A DNA stretch of 17,965 bases. It comes from an uncultured Rhodospirillaceae bacterium. GTDB lineage: Bacteria > Pseudomonadota > Alphaproteobacteria > UBA6615. Each line of letters begins with the position of its first letter. Within the stretch, counting starts at the first letter, position 1. The notes beneath the pieces are model-generated. The model saw only the letters and a program-made list of their open reading frames with translations, did no database searches and was not told the origin of the DNA. The stretch covers positions 1 through 17,965 of the forward strand of contig CAZHBA010000037.1 of assembly GCA_964530225.1 (NCBI GenBank), read 5' to 3'. Positions 1-13,917 of this stretch are shown in pieces. A program made the position numbers and the translations under genes.

Positions 1-23
1 TTCGAATCCCTCCCGCCCTGCCA
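1..23 (+). tRNA. 3' end of a tRNA gene truncated by the window edge (T-loop TTCGAAT, acceptor 3' strand, discriminator G, CCA)
   Basis: Sequence ttcgaatccctcccgccctgcca shows the canonical T-loop, a 5-nt T-stem strand, a 7-nt acceptor strand and encoded CCA. The G discriminator and T-arm nearly match the downstream tRNA-Ser, so this is probably another class II tRNA (Ser). Identity is not determinable from 23 nt. Confidence 0.55.
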
Positions 24-51
24 ATCAAGTTTAATAAACCAACCCCGAACC

Positions 52-139
<88 letters not shown>

Positions 140-146
140 TACTGTA

Positions 147-166
147 GTCCACTGATGTTCGTGGAC
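147..166 (+). terminator. Hairpin GTCCAC-tgatgttc-GTGGAC directly downstream of tRNA-Ser; possible tRNA transcript terminator or processing structure
   Basis: Perfect 6-bp inverted repeat with an 8-nt loop, 8 nt after the tRNA CCA, followed by an AT-rich tract (atccattaatatcatataaac). No clean U-run, so this is weak. Confidence 0.25.
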
Positions 167-213
167 ATCCATTAATATCATATAAACAATCGATTAGACT
201 TTCCTTTTTCTTT

Positions 214-264
214 GGGTGGTTCAGCAGTTACAATTTCCGATAGACTTAGAGAGTTAAAAACGAT
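214..264. repeat. Left copy of a 51-bp inverted repeat (50/51 identical to the reverse complement of 2137-2187)
   Basis: gggtggttcagcagttacaattTccgatagacttagagagttaaaaacgat, versus the reverse complement of 2137-2187 gggtggttcagcagttacaattGccgatagacttagagagttaaaaacgat. It encodes [16 protein letters not shown] on the plus strand, a duplicate of the linker and first half of the SHOCT domain of the 2067..3083 gene. It overlaps the last 3 codons and stop of the 254..1078 gene. Confidence 0.9.
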
Positions 265-1078
265 TGAATCCGGCAGTCGTCAGACGATAGACTGCAACGG
301 CGACTATAATACCTCCAATCCATTCACCTCCCCCGCGGCAGGGCGTGCATGCTCCGCCAATGATTACCCATGCGAACAAGAAACCGACAAAGGTCAGAAG
401 TATTCGTGAAATTTTTTGCCCAACGGTGAATGGTTTGGCTAACTCCGCTGTTCGCCAAGCAGCGCGAAGCCTATCATGTGCAGCCGCTGTTCGCCTATCA
501 CGTTCAACATTAACATGCTCTATATAGGCACTGTCGTCGTAGCTCTCATGGTAAAAACGACGGCATGCCAGCTGAATTTCTTCTTCGGATTCATTAGGTA
601 AATCATAACGCCCCTCCCCACCAAAATACCTGATCTGAATGCTCTCAGCATCACAAATCTTTTTGAAGTCCTCGACTTCAATAAATGAAACCGCTGTACC
701 TTTTTTCCAATAAACTTGTGAACTGCCGTCGCCCTGGATACCGTGGTCGCTTTCCCCGCTTTCAGTCTTTATAGGACTTACGATTTCCTCGTCACAGCTA
801 AATGCAATATTATCCATGGTGACCACGTCCCAACTGGGATAACCGGAAGATGCGGACGCCTCAGAAATAAAATAAAAACCGAGAAGATCTTCATCTTCAT
901 CCTCATATCTTCTGATAGTCAGATGTACTTTGGCGGCGTGGGTTCCGTGACCGGAGTAATAAAACCCTAACTCATCCTTAGAATAAGTTAGGGTAGATTC
1001 TTCATAAGGATCGAAGACAACTTTTATAAATTTTTTCTCAGTAACAACATTATCTGAAATTGACTCTTTTTTGGCCAT
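254..1078 (-). CDS. Hypothetical acidic protein (274 aa): ~210-aa Asp/Glu-rich soluble domain followed by two predicted C-terminal TM helices. Fourth gene of the low-GC operon.
   Basis: Long ORF with a good SD (AGGTGAG, 9 nt before the ATG) and 14 bp after the upstream gene's stop. Hydrophobic stretches ILLTFVGFLFAWVIIGGA and WIGGIIVAVAVY sit at the C-terminus, preceded by an Arg-rich segment. I recognise no family. The 5' two-thirds is AT-rich and the 3' ~280 nt is GC-richer. Confidence 0.55.
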   Translation of the reverse strand: MAKKESISDNVVTEKKFIKVVFDPYEESTLTYSKDELGFYYSGHGTHAAKVHLTIRRYEDEDEDLLGFYFISEASASSGYPSWDVVTMDNIAFSCDEEIVSPIKTESGESDHGIQGDGSSQVYWKKGTAVSFIEVEDFKKICDAESIQIRYFGGEGRYDLPNESEEEIQLACRRFYHESYDDSAYIEHVNVERDRRTAAAHDRLRAAWRTAELAKPFTVGQKISRILLTFVGFLFAWVIIGGACTPCRGGGEWIGGIIVAVAVYRLTTAGFNRF

Positions 1079-1092
1079 GGAAACTAACTCAC

Positions 1093-1359
1093 CTATTTCG
1101 AGCTCTCAGAATTTTTAATAGCAGCAATTTCTCTGTCAACAATTTTAATTTTTTTGTTAAGCATATCGCTTGGCGCAAGACCGAACGATTTTTGAAGGAA
1201 CGATTTTTTTCCTTCTAAGCGAGCCAATTCTTGCTCAATTTCCCGTTTGTCAGCTTCTTTCTTTTGGGCGGCTTTTTGTGCGGCTGGATTAACCTGTGTA
1301 CTTTTACAATAAGGGCAAATGTGAGTGTCACAGGAGGCTCCGCAATTATTACATTTCAT
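1093..1359 (-). CDS. Small zinc-ribbon protein (88 aa): N-terminal CxxC-x9-CxxC ribbon plus a Lys/Glu-rich coiled-coil tail; YdjG-like partner of SPFH proteins
   Basis: MKCNNCGASCDTHICPYCKS gives four Cys in CxxC...CxxC arrangement, followed by a charged helical region (KKEADKREIEQELARLEGKK). It sits in the operon 37 bp after the membrane-protein gene. Confidence 0.6.
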   Translation of the reverse strand: MKCNNCGASCDTHICPYCKSTQVNPAAQKAAQKKEADKREIEQELARLEGKKSFLQKSFGLAPSDMLNKKIKIVDREIAAIKNSESSK

Positions 1360-1396
1360 GGCAGAACTTTTCGGAAAGACTGTTCAGAGATCGCGA

Positions 1397-2077
1397 CTAA
1401 CATGACTTTGCTAAATTGGTTAGTTCCACAATTTTATTTCTACACTCAATAATCTCAGTTGAGTTAGGCTCTAATTTTTCAATAGACAAAACGAGAAGCC
1501 TATAACCATCCAGGTTTTTTATGCTAGCTAAGTGCGGCACCGAGTACTGAATAATTTCCTTTAATTTCTTCAAGTCTTTATCTAGCTCTTTTTTTTCAGC
1601 GGATAAATTGTTTGAAATCACCTGTAACTTTTTGATCAAATCTTCTTTCGGCAACACATCGTCAGGCACATTTACTTCCGCAGCTTTGGAAGCAATAATT
1701 AACAAAACAAATAAAATTGCGAAGATGCAAAACGAAATTATTTGACCTATAAGATGCCAATTTGGCAAAATTTCAAAATTATAAAAGAACCAAGAACCTA
1801 CTAAAAAAGAGCCACTTATAAGAGAATATAAAAAAACCACAAAACCCATGGATGGAAGGGCACCGATTAACGTTGATTTTTTACCTTCTCGTGATTTATG
1901 GACCAGAAGTGTTGCAACTCCCCAATTTAGTGCCGCTAAAAAAACGATCCATCCCACACTAAGCCAAAAATTTAGGTTACCCAATTTATCTGGTCGAATG
2001 AGAGCAGCTACGGCGACAATACCTACGGCAGTTATTAAGAAAATACTTATTAATAATTTGTTCATTTTAGATTTCAT
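1397..2077 (-). CDS. Integral membrane protein (~226 aa; 4 predicted TM helices in the N-terminal 140 aa) with a C-terminal cytoplasmic coiled-coil domain
   Basis: The ORF track gives 1397..2092 with a GTG start. Internal ATGs at 2077 and 2065 overlap or abut the stop (2067-2069) of the upstream SPFH gene, consistent with translational coupling. Hydrophobic segments are LLISIFLITAVGIVAVAALI, LSVGWIVFLAALNWGVATLLV, LIGALPSMGFVVFLYSLISGSFLVGSWFF and IGQIISFCIFAILFVLLII. The C-terminus is KEDLIKKLQVISNNLSAEKKELDKDLKKLKEI. Confidence 0.6.
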   Translation of the reverse strand: MKSKMNKLLISIFLITAVGIVAVAALIRPDKLGNLNFWLSVGWIVFLAALNWGVATLLVHKSREGKKSTLIGALPSMGFVVFLYSLISGSFLVGSWFFYNFEILPNWHLIGQIISFCIFAILFVLLIIASKAAEVNVPDDVLPKEDLIKKLQVISNNLSAEKKELDKDLKKLKEIIQYSVPHLASIKNLDGYRLLVLSIEKLEPNSTEIIECRNKIVELTNLAKSC

Positions 2078-3083
2078 CAATAATTTTATCACGTGCGGTG
2101 TTGAATTCTTCTTCTGTAATTAGGTTTTCATCCAACATCGTTTTTAACTCTCTAAGTCTATCGGCAATTGTAACTGCTGAACCACCCTTTGCTTCCACAT
2201 TAAGGTTTTGTCCAAGTTGTTGTCCGATAGGCAATCCAGCTCCTAAACCGATGCCAGCTCCTAGCATCGCTCCAACGCCTGCACCATCACCAGGGTTCTC
2301 GGCTGCAGCATTCAGTACTTCAAAGGTCTTGATAGCCTGATAGGCCCCGCCAACTTCCACTTTCGATAACTCTCTCGCTTCCATTGCCTTAGAAAATACC
2401 TCTTGGATTTGCGCCATTTGATCGTCAGGTATGTTGATACTTTCAATATTAAAATTCACAACCTCCAAACCAAATCGATCAAATTCATCCGAAATAGAAG
2501 AATATGTTCGCTCAGATAATTCGTTTAAGGACCCCGCAATTTGTAATATAGAAATTTGATCGTTGGTAATCCCTTCAGATAAAACGGAAATTAATTTTTG
2601 GATTATTTCCCCAATAAAATAATTTTGAAGTTTTAAAGCGTCAGCACTGTTTTGGGACCCCACAATCTGGGTCAAGAATGACCTGGTGTCGGTTATTCGT
2701 GCGCCCCATTTGCCAAAAGACCTTACGCTGACGGGAAATCCTAAAGCTAGATCCATTATTGGAACCGGTGAAGGGGTCCCCCATTTTAAATCTCTCTTTA
2801 CGTTTTTATTTACGTACCAAATTTCTGCAGTAAAAGGGGTATCGCCTCCAAATGGTAGATTTAAAAGCCTGTTTAATAGAGGTATATTTCCTGTCTCTAG
2901 TGTGTGGGTTCCAGGGGGCAAAACGTCCAAGACCTCTCCGCCTTTGACAAAAACGGCGTCTTGAGCTTGATTAACTATTACTTGAGAACCCAACTTCAAT
3001 TCTTCCCCTGGAAATTTCCAGACGAATTCTTGGTCGTTAGGTTGGTCATATTTAACTCTGTCAACTATAGCCATCATAACCAC
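2067..3083 (-). CDS. SPFH/Band-7 superfamily protein of the Band_7_1 ('virion core protein-like', B. subtilis YdjI-like) type with a C-terminal SHOCT domain
   Basis: The N-terminal region (VWKFPGEELKLGSQVIVNQAQDAVFVKGGEVLDVLPPGTHTLETGNIPLLNRLLNLPFGGDTPFTAEIWYVNK) matches my recollection of the YdjI/Band_7_1 signature. A Gly-rich linker (GDGAGVGAMLGAGIGLGAGLPIG) follows, then a C-terminal SHOCT-like tail (TIADRLRELKTMLDENLITEEEFNTARDKIIDEI). The track start is GTG at 3083. ATGs at 3077 and 3074 are better placed relative to GGTGG and are the likely true start. Low GC. Confidence 0.8.
   Translation of the reverse strand: MVMMAIVDRVKYDQPNDQEFVWKFPGEELKLGSQVIVNQAQDAVFVKGGEVLDVLPPGTHTLETGNIPLLNRLLNLPFGGDTPFTAEIWYVNKNVKRDLKWGTPSPVPIMDLALGFPVSVRSFGKWGARITDTRSFLTQIVGSQNSADALKLQNYFIGEIIQKLISVLSEGITNDQISILQIAGSLNELSERTYSSISDEFDRFGLEVVNFNIESINIPDDQMAQIQEVFSKAMEARELSKVEVGGAYQAIKTFEVLNAAAENPGDGAGVGAMLGAGIGLGAGLPIGQQLGQNLNVEAKGGSAVTIADRLRELKTMLDENLITEEEFNTARDKIIDEI
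2137..2187. repeat. Right copy of the 51-bp inverted repeat (inside the 3' end of the SPFH-SHOCT gene)
   Basis: Reverse complement is identical to 214-264 except one base (G/T; Ala versus Ser codon). It covers codons GGSAVTIADRLRELKT of the 2067..3083 gene. Confidence 0.9.
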
Positions 3084-3124
3084 CGTTAAAAGTTTGCGTT
3101 AAAAGTGGGTTTCACACCGGGAAA

Positions 3125-3130
3125 AGTCAA
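3125..3130 (-). promoter_or_regulatory. Candidate -35 hexamer TTGACT for the low-GC operon; -10 not clearly assignable
   Basis: Minus strand reads ...AGAGTATACTCTacaagaaaagTTGACTtttcccggtgtgaaacccacTTTTAAcgcaaacttttaacGGTGGttATGATG. The -35 is a perfect consensus but the best -10-like hexamers are at non-ideal spacing. Confidence 0.3.
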
Positions 3131-3140
3131 CTTTTCTTGT

Positions 3141-3152
3141 AGAGTATACTCT
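3141..3152. promoter_or_regulatory. Perfect 12-bp palindrome AGAGTATACTCT upstream of the operon -35; candidate regulator-binding site
   Basis: Seen directly. It is self-complementary over 12 bp, centred ~16 bp upstream of the TTGACT hexamer, in the 277-bp intergenic region between cbtA and the SPFH gene. Confidence 0.4.
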
Positions 3153-3310
3153 GTAAAAGAGGCTGGGAATTGCAGCTTATTGCGCCCCCTCGGCCCAAGC
3201 TCAGCAATCGCCCTCGCCGATCTCAGCCGCCCGACCCGCCGTCGATCAATGCCGAGTTAGTTTGGGGGTAGATTTGTGGGTAGCAATTAAACGGTATTGT
3301 CAAAACCTGA

Positions 3311-3360: not shown

Positions 3361-4107
3361 CTACGCCTTGCTCTCGCCGAGGCGCCGATAGATTTCGCCG
3401 GCGCTGGCGCCGAGTAACAGCCAGAAGAACAGTGCCGCCGCCAGCGTCCAGACGACATAGAGCGACGCCAGTTCGGGTGGTACTGGCCCCGGTTCGAGGC
3501 CGGCCGGGCGCGGCGCACCAATCAGATGGGGCAACAGGATCACGGGCACGCCAATGGCGCGCAGCCATAGGGGCTTGGCGAAGACCAATAGGCCGAGCCC
3601 GAGCGCGGTCGCGCCCATGGCACCAAACCACCAAAGCTGGCGGACCTGTATTTCTGCCGCACCGCCGCCGGGCACTTCCGGCGGCAACCCGAGCGACGGC
3701 GCAAGTGTGAAGATGACGTAGCCCGCCATGCCCCACCACAGCCCAACCCGCATATCGACGGGCTTAGCCCGGATGGCGAACGCTGCAACCATGACAAAGG
3801 CAAAGCCCACCGCGGTGACGATATTGGCGAGAAAGGTAAAGCCGTAGCGTTGGAGGCCGTCCAGCGGCTGCCACGGCGCTACCGGCTCTACGTCAGACAC
3901 CCCTGTGGCGGCGCTTTTCTCGTGGAGGTGGATCTGGCCGTCATCGTGTAGATGCTCGACAACACCGTAGCTGTGGCCGCCACCGACTTGCTCATAGGCT
4001 TCGGCTTCAAGGATCAGCGGCGTTACCGTGAACGCCTGCACTACGCTGTAAATCACGGCTGTTAAAAACCCGGCGAACAGGCCGGTCGTTACCATCCGGC
4101 GCAGCAT
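3361..4107 (-). CDS. cbtA: Cobalt transporter subunit CbtA (multi-TM, His-rich periplasmic segment)
   Basis: 248 aa with multiple TM helices and a His-rich segment GGGHSYGVVEHLHDDGQIHLHE typical of CbtA. It sits immediately after a CbtB-like small protein (11-nt gap). Confidence 0.78.
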   Translation of the reverse strand: MLRRMVTTGLFAGFLTAVIYSVVQAFTVTPLILEAEAYEQVGGGHSYGVVEHLHDDGQIHLHEKSAATGVSDVEPVAPWQPLDGLQRYGFTFLANIVTAVGFAFVMVAAFAIRAKPVDMRVGLWWGMAGYVIFTLAPSLGLPPEVPGGGAAEIQVRQLWWFGAMGATALGLGLLVFAKPLWLRAIGVPVILLPHLIGAPRPAGLEPGPVPPELASLYVVWTLAAALFFWLLLGASAGEIYRRLGESKA

Positions 4108-10267: not shown

Positions 10268-10295
10268 GCGGCTAGAGCAGTGTACAGATAGATGG
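10268..10295. repeat. Arm 1 of an imperfect inverted repeat in the sdhE-recG divergent intergenic region (25/28 matches with arm 2, 20-bp perfect core ATCTATCTGTACACTGCTCT)
   Basis: The reverse complement ccatctatctgtacactgctctagccgc aligns with 10511-10538 cgatctatctgtacactgctctcaccgc. Confidence 0.8.
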
Positions 10296-10510
10296 AATCA
10301 TTTCTATTGGCGGTCGGTGCGGAAGACGGCGCAGCCCAATGCGGCGTATTGGGTAAACCATCGGACAAAGCGGTTGCCCGCCGAACGCCAGCCCGGAGGG
10401 GGTGGGTGTCTATACGCCAAATCCTGCGAGCTTAGGCTCGACCATAGCTACGGCTATGCTCTTTACCGAAGCCCTTGGCCTTGACCTAAATCCGCTCCGT
10501 CAAAATGGTT

Positions 10511-10538
10511 CGATCTATCTGTACACTGCTCTCACCGC
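10511..10538. repeat. Arm 2 of the sdhE-recG intergenic inverted repeat
   Basis: See arm 1. The arms are ~243 bp apart and a 6-bp-stem hairpin CATAGCtacgGCTATG (10443-10458) lies between them. Confidence 0.8.
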
Positions 10539-13639: not shown

Positions 13640-13726
13640 TGGTGCGGCTGAGAGGACTCGAACCTCCACGGGCATGCGCCCACTAGCACCTGAAGCTAGC
13701 GCGTCTACCAATTTCGCCACAGCCGC
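13640..13726 (-). tRNA. tRNA-Leu (anticodon CAG), class II with long variable arm, CCA encoded
   Basis: Reverse complement GCGGCTGTGGCGAAATTGGTAGACGCGCTAGCTTCAGGTGCTAGTGGGCGCATGCCCGTGGAGGTTCGAGTCCTCTCAGCCGCACCA. Anticodon stem CTAGC/GCTAG with loop TTCAGGT gives CAG. T-arm GGTTCGAGTCC. Confidence 0.88.
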
Positions 13727-13830: not shown

Positions 13831-13917
13831 TGGTGCGGCAGAGAGGACTTGAACCTCCACGGGGTTTCCCCCACAACGCCCTCAACGTTGCGCGTCTACC
13901 AATTCCGCCACTGCCGC
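13831..13917 (-). tRNA. tRNA-Leu (anticodon GAG), class II with long variable arm, CCA encoded
   Basis: Reverse complement GCGGCAGTGGCGGAATTGGTAGACGCGCAACGTTGAGGGCGTTGTGGGGGAAACCCCGTGGAGGTTCAAGTCCTCTCTGCCGCACCA. Anticodon stem CAACG/CGTTG with loop TTGAGGG gives GAG. Confidence 0.88.

Follow-up and report, generated by a model that had tools for sequence, protein, structure and literature searches.

The DNA analysed here, a stretch of 17,965 nucleotides that is called the window throughout, carries a 51-nt sequence twice in inverted orientation. The two copies bracket three genes, and one of them lies within the coding sequence of a fourth. We therefore asked whether the bracketed segment is a device that switches by inversion, or whether the repeat is what an earlier rearrangement left behind, two readings that the initial annotation had set side by side. 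The repeat is probably a lineage-specific scar of the re-orientation of two of the genes, C and D, and thus a structural leftover rather than a working device.

The four-gene cassette beside tRNA-Ser

The features of the locus are listed in Table 1. Pfam searches with the gene A product returned PF13421 at 6.5e-47 (160.3 bits, gathering threshold 24) and PF09851 at 1.2e-06 (28.5 bits, gathering threshold 27); both thresholds are exceeded, and gene A encodes an SPFH (Band_7_1) protein with a SHOCT domain. Its homologues (n=1725) originate in the main from marine samples. Exact-protein look-ups with A read from a GTG start and with P0002 gave no record for either.

Table 1. Coordinates of the features of the cassette and its left flank in the window
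Feature	Position	Strand	Description
tRNA-Ser(UGA)	52-139	plus	found by ARAGORN; the low-GC islet starts directly past its 3' end
AT-rich spacer	140-213		32% GC, between the tRNA and the left arm
Left arm	214-264	plus	isolated 51-nt inverted copy of A codons 297-312
Gene D, 274 aa	254-1078	minus	soluble domain of ~190 aa and a membrane helix
'Alternative tail' frame, 48 codons and stop	265-409	plus	antisense to the membrane-helix region of D
Gene C, 88 aa	1093-1359	minus	small zinc-ribbon and coiled-coil protein
Gene B, 222 aa	1397-2065	minus	multi-pass membrane protein with coiled-coil tail
Gene A, 335 aa	2067-3074	minus	SPFH (Band_7_1) domain, Gly-rich linker, C-terminal SHOCT domain
Right arm	2137-2187	minus	original copy; codes for A residues 297-312 (GGSAVTIADRLRELKT)
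Region upstream of A	3075-3200	minus	promoter-like match 3102-3073; right edge of the low-GC islet

Gene B always follows A directly in the relatives, and 'A> B>' is the commonest architecture among the loci. Gene C aligned with the small CxxC...CxxC proteins that precede the D homologues in the related loci L115, L130 and L131; it is located upstream of D, and the two form a conserved module. Gene D has no close homologue, as a word-indexed search returned the self match only, and it gave no matches in Pfam, NCBIfam or PADLOC. HMMER recovered 27 remote relatives of D, the nearest of them with 23-29% identity, which belong to an unnamed family; the nearest homologue, P0127, is on a contig of only 1 kb and its context is uninformative. 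The C-terminal ~30 residues of D (254-345) overrun the end of most homologues (alignment A3). D was also compared with the fourth gene of the L006-type cassettes, but the two are not homologous, the alignment being forced.

The GC profile revealed an islet from ~140 to ~3150 with 33-48% GC, against 58-64% elsewhere in the window. The islet consists of the four cargo genes only, its location at a tRNA 3' end and its deviant base composition are those of a tRNA island, and its right neighbour is the high-GC host gene cbtA (3361-4107). The four genes A-D are a horizontally acquired SPFH-SHOCT operon or cassette that adjoins tRNA-Ser in an islet of ~3 kb. No integrase of the islet was found in the 18-kb contig, the tRNA 3' end does not recur, att-type direct repeats were not found around the islet, and searches for a PADLOC, plasmid or phage-type context returned nothing. 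An assembly chimera of the low-GC islet with high-GC DNA was rejected, since contigs L003, L004 and L171 independently span the right junction at an identity of at least 99.9%.

The inverted repeat and the end of gene D

A repeat search of the window recovered the near-perfect inverted repeat: the left arm is the reverse complement of the right arm at 50 of the 51 positions (98% complementary) and the arms are 1872 nt apart. When the window was searched with the 51-mer at up to three mismatches, the arms themselves were the only two sites, and none of 200 dinucleotide-preserving shuffles contained any match. The window, 174 loci and the viral, metagenome and genome collections held no further copy of an arm; an exact 28-mer of the arm gave 0 matches in the metagenome, GTDB genome and viral contig collections, a count of little weight as the source contig is absent there. 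The lone mismatch is at position 236, where the left arm has T against the complement of G in the right arm; it leads to Ser versus Ala and leaves perfect blocks of 22 and 28 nt. The same Ala is found at this position in the relative L005, which makes the Ala of the right arm the ancestral state. Both arms, with the identical single mismatch, are present in the independent NCBI contig L001 and the right arm in six more contigs, so that an assembly artefact is ruled out.

The uniqueness of the arms bears on the notion of a small transposon-like or MITE-like element that carries B, C and D and has the arms as its terminal inverted repeats. Formally, two inverted 51-nt ends do surround a 1.9-kb segment within a horizontally acquired islet, but the segment is without a transposase, the arm is without another copy in any of the collections named above, the A-B junction is conserved without a repeat in more than 90 related loci, and the flanking 'duplication' is only TTT, which is trivial in AT-rich DNA. 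Since the reading frame of A crosses the right arm unbroken and yields a complete SHOCT domain on the segment side, nothing has been inserted into A. The transposon is effectively refuted, and we give it hardly any probability.

The right arm comprises the last base of codon 296 of A, codons 297-312 and two bases of codon 313. It is inside gene A, as the initial annotation had it, and reaches from just ahead of the Pfam match to SHOCT into the first part of that match. The left arm had been placed just past the end of gene D, which proved to be wrong: on the minus strand the arm overlaps the last three codons of D (NRF) and its stop codon, and hence encodes the end of D. No gene body was found upstream of the left arm (140-213). 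Comparison of the arms with L005, the closest relative, showed that the left and right arms differ at 1/51 positions, that gene A of L005 differs from the right arm at 7/51 and that the left arm differs from L005 at 8/51. The left arm is therefore a copy, of recent origin, of this lineage's own gene A. The same figures (1/51 versus 7/51), and the fact that no second gene body is attached to the arm, leave the proposed derivation from two SHOCT-encoding paralogues unsupported.

Read on the plus strand, the left arm is followed by an open tail of 48 residues (ORF 212-409), as had been noted. This 'alternative tail' overlaps, on the opposite strand, the conserved membrane helix of D; it has no homologues in the related loci and no similarity to the SHOCT core that it would replace. 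We judge the frame to be non-coding, and for an open frame as long as 48 codons after the left arm a chance origin is plausible.

The arms might also act at the level of the RNA. They would pair in the A-B-C-D transcript to a 51-bp duplex that loops out B-C-D, and the duplex would serve as an RNase III site or as a stem protecting the 3' end, setting the amounts of A mRNA versus B-C-D mRNA. An operon read from the promoter upstream of A would have both arms on one transcript, the stop codon of the last gene falls within the left arm, and the duplex, with its single G-A mismatch, has a predicted energy of -86 kcal/mol. The minus strand of 140-264 is without an intrinsic terminator-like site, so the transcript probably continues through the left arm; the nearest minus-strand terminator candidates are at 397-384, inside D, and at 59-42, within the tRNA-Ser gene. 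However, pairing is disfavoured by the 1.9 kb between the arms and by translation of the upstream one, a cut inside A would cost A its stop codon, and the 3' region folds locally no better than shuffled sequence (z = -0.23). The repeat is moreover confined to one lineage, which leaves no covariation to draw on, and no such pairing was found in relatives. We give this role a small chance only.

Orientation of the bracketed segment

If the 1.87-kb segment were flipped, by RecA or by a recombinase from another part of the genome, A would be truncated before its SHOCT core and the A promoter would no longer face B-C-D; some of the cells would then have the operon OFF, or transcribed from the spacer on the tRNA side. 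Inverted repeats do flank the segment (51-nt arms, 50/51), and the geometry is that of a 'partial intergenic' or gene-altering inversion, with a long near-perfect repeat and one arm in a coding 3' end (PMC9881135, PMC10028968). A promoterless partner frame starts exactly at the other arm, and gene D stays whole in either orientation as both arms supply the same ending, NRF and stop. A plus-strand promoter-like site in the spacer (162-190) points into the segment, although it is weak, scoring 9/12 in a region that gave 12 such matches versus 5.9 expected.

Against these features, only one orientation was observed in ten assemblies (the window and nine others, from about six to eight marine samples), where an assembly represents the majority orientation and a flipped subpopulation of 1-10% would be invisible. 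The second orientation was found neither within the population nor in close strains in this set, the left arm being crossed by two assemblies only, the window and L001. Contigs L001, L003, L004, L169, L171, L172 and L173 extend across the right arm in the same order as the window, to which they are 99.6-100% identical, and in all contigs collinear with the window the mismatch is on the same arm. The locus is represented in ERR599062, TARA SAMEA2619970 and SAMEA2623390, SRR26502663, JGI 3300035206 and 3300020423, and the reads underlying GCA_035092285.1. Some contigs end near the left arm (L002 at 248, L003 at 274 and L004 at 316); these ends were considered as graph branching, but their offsets are unlike k-mer logic and they were judged uninformative. 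The same reads may underlie L003 and L004, a guess from their near-coincident ends, both end pairs being ~43 nt apart.

Pfam and NCBIfam searches of all large ORFs of the 18-kb contig revealed no recombinase, invertase or transposase, although recombinases for invertible segments are sometimes encoded far away (Milman et al., PMC9881135). An A protein with the alternative tail was not found among ~15 billion predicted proteins; the matches to A included two entries that are 100% identical, and the next one was 73% identical. A 373-aa member of the A cluster was examined as a flipped form and rejected, being an N-terminal miscall of a 90%-identical relative with the native SHOCT tail. The tail that inversion would add is, as described above, antisense to the membrane helix of D, without a homologue and unlike the segment replaced, and a repeat of this kind was found in no related locus.

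Perfect blocks of 22 and 28 nt are near the minimum for RecA-dependent exchange. Because the mismatch splits the arm into two such short blocks, the arm is at most a poor substrate for a rare RecA-dependent inversion.

Every test that was run (recombinase, orientation, tail protein, tail homology and recurrence) thus went against the phase-variation or C-terminus-switching device that the initial annotation had proposed, and we consider an active switch unlikely. Quite unlikely, too, is its more specific form, an inverton of a free-living marine bacterium worked by a recombinase in trans or by RecA, in which a minority of cells would lose the SHOCT oligomerisation tail of the SPFH scaffold, the three partner genes would be re-wired or silenced and the arms would be kept alike by gene conversion.

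Gene order in related loci and likeness to known systems

An architecture scan of the related loci showed that the C-D module is convergent with A-B, in the order A> B> D< C<, in L115, L130 and L131. In L006 and L008 convergent D-like genes are located downstream of the cassette, and L006 additionally carries a C-like gene. These five convergent loci represent three lineages, since L130 and L131 are 96% identical and L006 and L008 are 99.7% identical. The arrangement with all four genes co-directional (A> B> C> D>) was found in the lineage of the window only. L005, which is 84% identical and whose lineage is represented by ERZ23495038 and SAMN05991696, has A> B> C> and its contig ends inside C; searches with D and with C returned self matches only and no D region of the L005 lineage. 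None of 160 related loci had a comparable repeat at the 3' end of A, the sole significant inverted repeat touching it being that of this lineage, and no stray inverted SHOCT fragments were detected in other related loci. Comparison with relatives, which had been suggested as a means of finding the opposite orientation, thus revealed C-D turned the other way relative to A-B in five loci, but without a repeat there. Related cassettes are the cargo of tRNA-integrating islands with tyrosine integrases, a setting that is prone to rearrangement; that of L006 is in a 7.2-kb island that has an integrase and is bordered by tRNA-Cys and by 46 bp of the tRNA 3' end repeated without mismatch.

The idea of a scar of a past inversion or duplication gained support from this comparison, as C-D is opposite in relatives and the left arm is at one of the breakpoints; its paralogue version, as shown above, did not. 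We infer the following order and mechanism of events, and with them the absence of a function. The ancestral-type cassette would have had the C-D module convergent with A-B, as in the relatives, and a rearrangement would have made A-B and C-D co-directional in this lineage. A 51-nt inverted copy of the lineage's own gene A would have remained at the breakpoint distal to D, and the D reading frame now terminates in it. This copy could be templated filler at the inversion junction, the residue of an inverted duplication of the s-Atail-B stretch by staggered breaks with subsequent trimming by deletion, or the last trace of another A gene that was once located near the tRNA. The arm is without a gene body, a partner cassette or a dedicated enzyme, and a D that ends inside the arm with an extension of ~30 aa is what would be expected from a junction within or beside the D reading frame.

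Besides the limits of the assemblies and the possibly distant recombinase mentioned above, two points weigh against the scar. Each of the three origins is a proposal and would need one complex event or two. Moreover, if the re-orientation is older than the split from L005, in which C is already co-directional, a neutral left arm should differ by more than one base. That the arms are much more alike than such an old arm would be speaks for the switch, as does the fact that the orientation of C-D relative to A-B varies within the family. Near-identical arms despite an old rearrangement imply either that the arm is younger or that gene conversion has occurred between the arms, and if the latter holds, the arms do recombine.

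If the repeat is a scar, the locus is mainly a caution, in that an overwhelming inverted repeat and an open 'alternative tail' can stem from a single rearrangement. A long inverted repeat with one arm in coding sequence need not signal phase variation, and here it was gene order among relatives that pointed to a scar. A four-gene SPFH-SHOCT cassette moves on tRNA-integrating islands among marine bacteria of widely different GC, and its C-D module has been re-oriented in the course of evolution. Should the segment invert after all, an oligotrophic marine bacterium would have an inverton of an unusual kind, with a membrane-scaffold operon as target and not a surface antigen or a restriction specificity subunit.

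The gene-altering ('partial intergenic') inversions and shufflons, such as hsdS, R64 pilV and the G segments of phage tail-fibre genes, have been surveyed by Milman et al. 2023 (PMC9881135) and Chanin et al. 2023 (PMC10028968). As in these systems, one arm is near the 3' end of a coding sequence and a promoterless frame is at the other, so that inversion would swap the C-terminus. The present locus differs from them in that no recombinase is nearby, the tail is unrelated to the segment replaced and antisense to another gene, three whole unrelated genes are inside the segment, no variation of orientation is seen within the species and the repeat is not conserved in relatives.

Inversion breakpoints with inverted duplications are explained by staggered-break or replicative template-switch models, as for Drosophila inversions and complex rearrangements. 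The locus resembles such breakpoints in that exactly the border of a re-oriented gene block carries, in inverted form, a short stretch copied from close by, with sharp boundaries without homology. Since B and the tail of A separate the 51 nt from the other C-D breakpoint, an extra step of deletion or of templated filling must be assumed. With the tRNA-integrating islands that carry tyrosine integrases the islet shares its start at the tRNA-Ser 3' end and its strongly deviant GC; unlike such islands (e.g. that of L006), the window is without an integrase and without a distal repeat of the tRNA end.

In the pspA-ydjGHI operon of Bacillus subtilis, YdjI is an SPFH protein, YdjH a membrane protein and YdjG a zinc ribbon. 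The present cassette differs in its C-terminal SHOCT domain, in gene order and in having no pspA. It resembles that operon in that a membrane protein comes after the Band_7_1 SPFH protein, A, and a small zinc-ribbon protein belongs to the set, and homologues at ~42-44% identity were retrieved from Bacillales genomes.

The inverted repeat and the low-GC islet

A repeat search of the window indicated that the left and right arms, 51 nt long, 98% complementary and 1872 nt apart, form by far its longest inverted repeat. A search of the window with the 51-mer, allowing up to 3 mismatches, recovered the two arms only, and none of 200 dinucleotide-preserving shuffles gave any match to it; the repeat claimed in the initial annotation is thus real, and viral, metagenome and genome collections yielded no further copy of it. 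The sole difference between the arms is at window position 236. The right arm is the coding sequence of residues 297-312 of gene A, GGSAVTIADRLRELKT, at the start of the SHOCT match. The left arm had been placed just past gene D, which needs a small correction: it overlaps the end of D by three codons plus the stop codon, so that the NRF* ending of D is written by the arm. Read on the plus strand, the left arm gives 16 residues and, as had been described, runs into an open frame, of 48 codons, the alternative tail that would replace the SHOCT core of A upon inversion.

The GC content is 32-46% from position 140 to approximately 3150, 64% in the adjoining cbtA-like gene and 58% in the remaining contig. 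This low-GC islet contains exactly the four minus-strand genes A, B, C and D, while the remaining window codes for NIPSNAP, DsbA, Mfd, SdhE, RecG, DUF502, Usp, a hydrolase and a racemase; no recombinase, integrase or transposase is encoded in the window. In the spacer separating tRNA-Ser from the left arm, a weak promoter-like match is directed into the repeat-bounded segment. A second inverted repeat is located mostly in the gap of the divergent sdhE-like and recG-like genes and reaches with its left arm into the 5' end of the sdhE-like ORF. The two tandem tRNA-Leu genes, with CAG and GAG anticodons, are 82% identical over 89 nt.

Coordinates of features in the window and in related loci (L numbers)
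Feature	Sequence	Position	Strand	Remarks
tRNA-Ser(UGA)	window	52-139		
Promoter-like match	window	162-190	plus	TGGACA, 17-nt spacer, AACAAT; 9/12
Left arm	window	214-264		
Right arm	window	2137-2187		
Gene D	window	254-1078	minus	274 aa, no family match
Gene C	window		minus	88-aa zinc-ribbon protein
Gene B	window		minus	222-aa membrane protein
Gene A	window	2067-3074	minus	SPFH Band_7_1 domain (6.5e-47) and SHOCT
Second inverted repeat	window	10268-10303 / 10503-10538		36 nt, 89% complementary, 199 nt apart
tRNA-Leu, first of two	window	13640-13726		
tRNA-Leu, second of two	window	13831-13917		
C-D module	window	254-1359		
C-D module	L115	3374-4365		
C-D module	L130	2546-3750		
C-D module	L131	2375-3534		
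tRNA-Cys	L006	7699-7772		
Phage_integrase gene	L006	13879-14856		
Repeat of tRNA-Cys 3' end	L006	14956-15001		46 bp, direct, perfect
SHOCT-coding direct repeat	L150	2612-2732 / 3162-3282		121 nt, 80% identity

Orientation of the C-D module and origin of the left arm

A set of 160 related loci was drawn from GTDB genomes and JGI metagenomes, and in each the final 240 nt of A were compared with the remainder of the locus. A significant inverted match to the 3' end of A was found only in the window lineage, and a SHOCT-tail profile detected no stray inverted SHOCT fragments in the relatives. In the related locus L150, the SHOCT-coding end of A is duplicated as a direct repeat, with the second copy inside a downstream co-directional 162-aa SHOCT protein. 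HMMER search of 1.8 billion cluster representatives revealed a remote D family at 23-29% identity, whose members carry a soluble domain of ~190 aa and a single membrane helix at the C-terminus; most stop right after the helix, while D extends ~30 residues more, into the arm.

The comparison of orientation in relatives that had been suggested revealed loci with C-D opposite to A-B. A D-family search of all fetched loci identified D-like genes beside A-B cassettes in L115, L130, L131, L006 and L008, on the strand opposite A in all five; since L130 and L131 are 96% identical and L006 and L008 99.7% identical, these represent three lineages. A small CxxC...CxxC protein aligning with C precedes the D-like gene on the same strand in L115, L130, L131 and L006, while in L008 the D-like gene alone was detected. 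An automated scan found the architecture A> B> D< C< in three loci and A> B> C> D> in the window lineage only; two loci carry A> B> C'> D'> followed by convergent D-like genes, with a C-like gene also in L006, and the closest relative, L005 (84% nucleotide identity), reads A> B> C> up to the contig end. C and D form a conserved unnamed two-gene module accompanying SPFH-SHOCT A-B pairs, with no Pfam, NCBIfam or PADLOC match.

Since C-D is convergent with A-B in the relatives, we infer that the ancestral orientation was convergent and that the module was re-oriented in the window lineage. The D-distal edge of this block is exactly where the left arm lies. It differs from the right arm at 1 of 51 positions, against 7 of 51 for A of L005, which indicates that it was copied from the window lineage's own A; it was either made after the split from L005 or kept identical by gene conversion. 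Because the right arm keeps the Ala at the mismatch that is common to L005, the change occurred in the left arm.

The most likely history may have taken any of three routes. The C-D module could have been inverted once, 51 nt of templated sequence being inserted at the junction on the tRNA side; an inversion through staggered breaks could have duplicated arm-Atail-B in inverted form, the redundant Atail-B copy then being deleted; or a second, tRNA-proximal A copy, convergent with D as in the relatives, could have decayed. In each of them the junction would fall at the end of D, which now stops three codons into the arm, and the repeat would be a by-product. The sequence is consistent with all three alike. 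The scar offered as an alternative in the initial annotation is supported and made more precise by the opposite C-D orientation in relatives and the position of the arm at the edge of the re-oriented block. A transposon with terminal repeats is excluded, as the coding sequence of A runs across the right arm and on to a complete SHOCT domain, and relatives lacking the repeat share the conserved A-B junction.

Same-locus contigs and the inversion reading

Nine further contigs of this locus (L001-L004 and L169-L173; NCBI, JGI, ENA/TARA and Logan) came from exact-protein look-ups and have 99.6-100% identity to the window. An assembly artefact or chimera was rejected, since L001 has both arms, with the identical mismatch, and L003, L004 and L171 each run from the islet across the junction into the high-GC cbtA side. 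The right arm is crossed by seven of the nine and the left arm by one; all arm-crossing contigs run collinear with the window, with no flipped one among them, so that of the two orientations of a switch only that of the window occurs among the assemblies.

When A was searched against 5.8 billion protein clusters, two entries were 100% identical and the next at most 73%; the cluster members were one fragment and one 373-aa protein, a 90%-identical relative with a miscalled start and the native SHOCT tail. No gene call with the alternative tail was found among these clusters and cluster members, and no homologue of the tail in 174 loci. The tail bears no resemblance to SHOCT and is antisense to the membrane helix conserved in the D family. 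These results speak against the proposed C-terminal cassette switch.

As a substrate for recombination, the repeat has perfectly matched stretches of 22 and 28 nt only, which are marginal for RecA-dependent exchange. Phase variation, also proposed, is unsupported, with no recombinase in the window, no flipped contig or protein and no recurrence. An active inverton served by a recombinase encoded far away would explain the near-identity of the arms by ongoing exchange, and assemblies, of which two only cross the left arm, hide minority orientations; however, with a window devoid of recombinases and a single orientation in the arm-crossing contigs, it is unlikely. An RNA-level role, the arms pairing as a duplex in the operon transcript (-86 kcal/mol), is conceivable but lacks comparative support and appears very improbable.

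Comparison with gene-altering inversions and tRNA-integrating islands

Published surveys of gene-altering inversions (PMC9881135; PMC10028968) emphasise a recombinase encoded nearby, variation within a species and truncation of the partner coding sequence; the repeat described here agrees with such inversions in its bare geometry only.

Across the islet and tRNA-Ser, L001 has the sequence of the window except at tRNA position 6 (window 57, G versus A). Immediately 5' of the tRNA its divergence from the window is complete (window 1-57 compared with L001:2250-3368); here window 1-23 is the 3' end of another tRNA. The difference suggests heterogeneity among strains, or a hybrid tRNA that integration left behind.

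The 7.2 kb island of L006 extends from tRNA-Cys to the direct repeat of the tRNA 3' end. Besides the A-B-C'-D' cassette it carries D-like and C-like genes in convergent orientation and, at its far end, a tyrosine integrase; so bracketed and equipped, it identifies the SPFH-SHOCT cassette as the cargo of an island of the classical tRNA-integrating type. L008 resembles this island in a shorter or circularly permuted form, and the contig of another relative, P0006, has an integrase just upstream of A. The window islet looks like the stripped cargo of such an island, inserted in a high-GC host.
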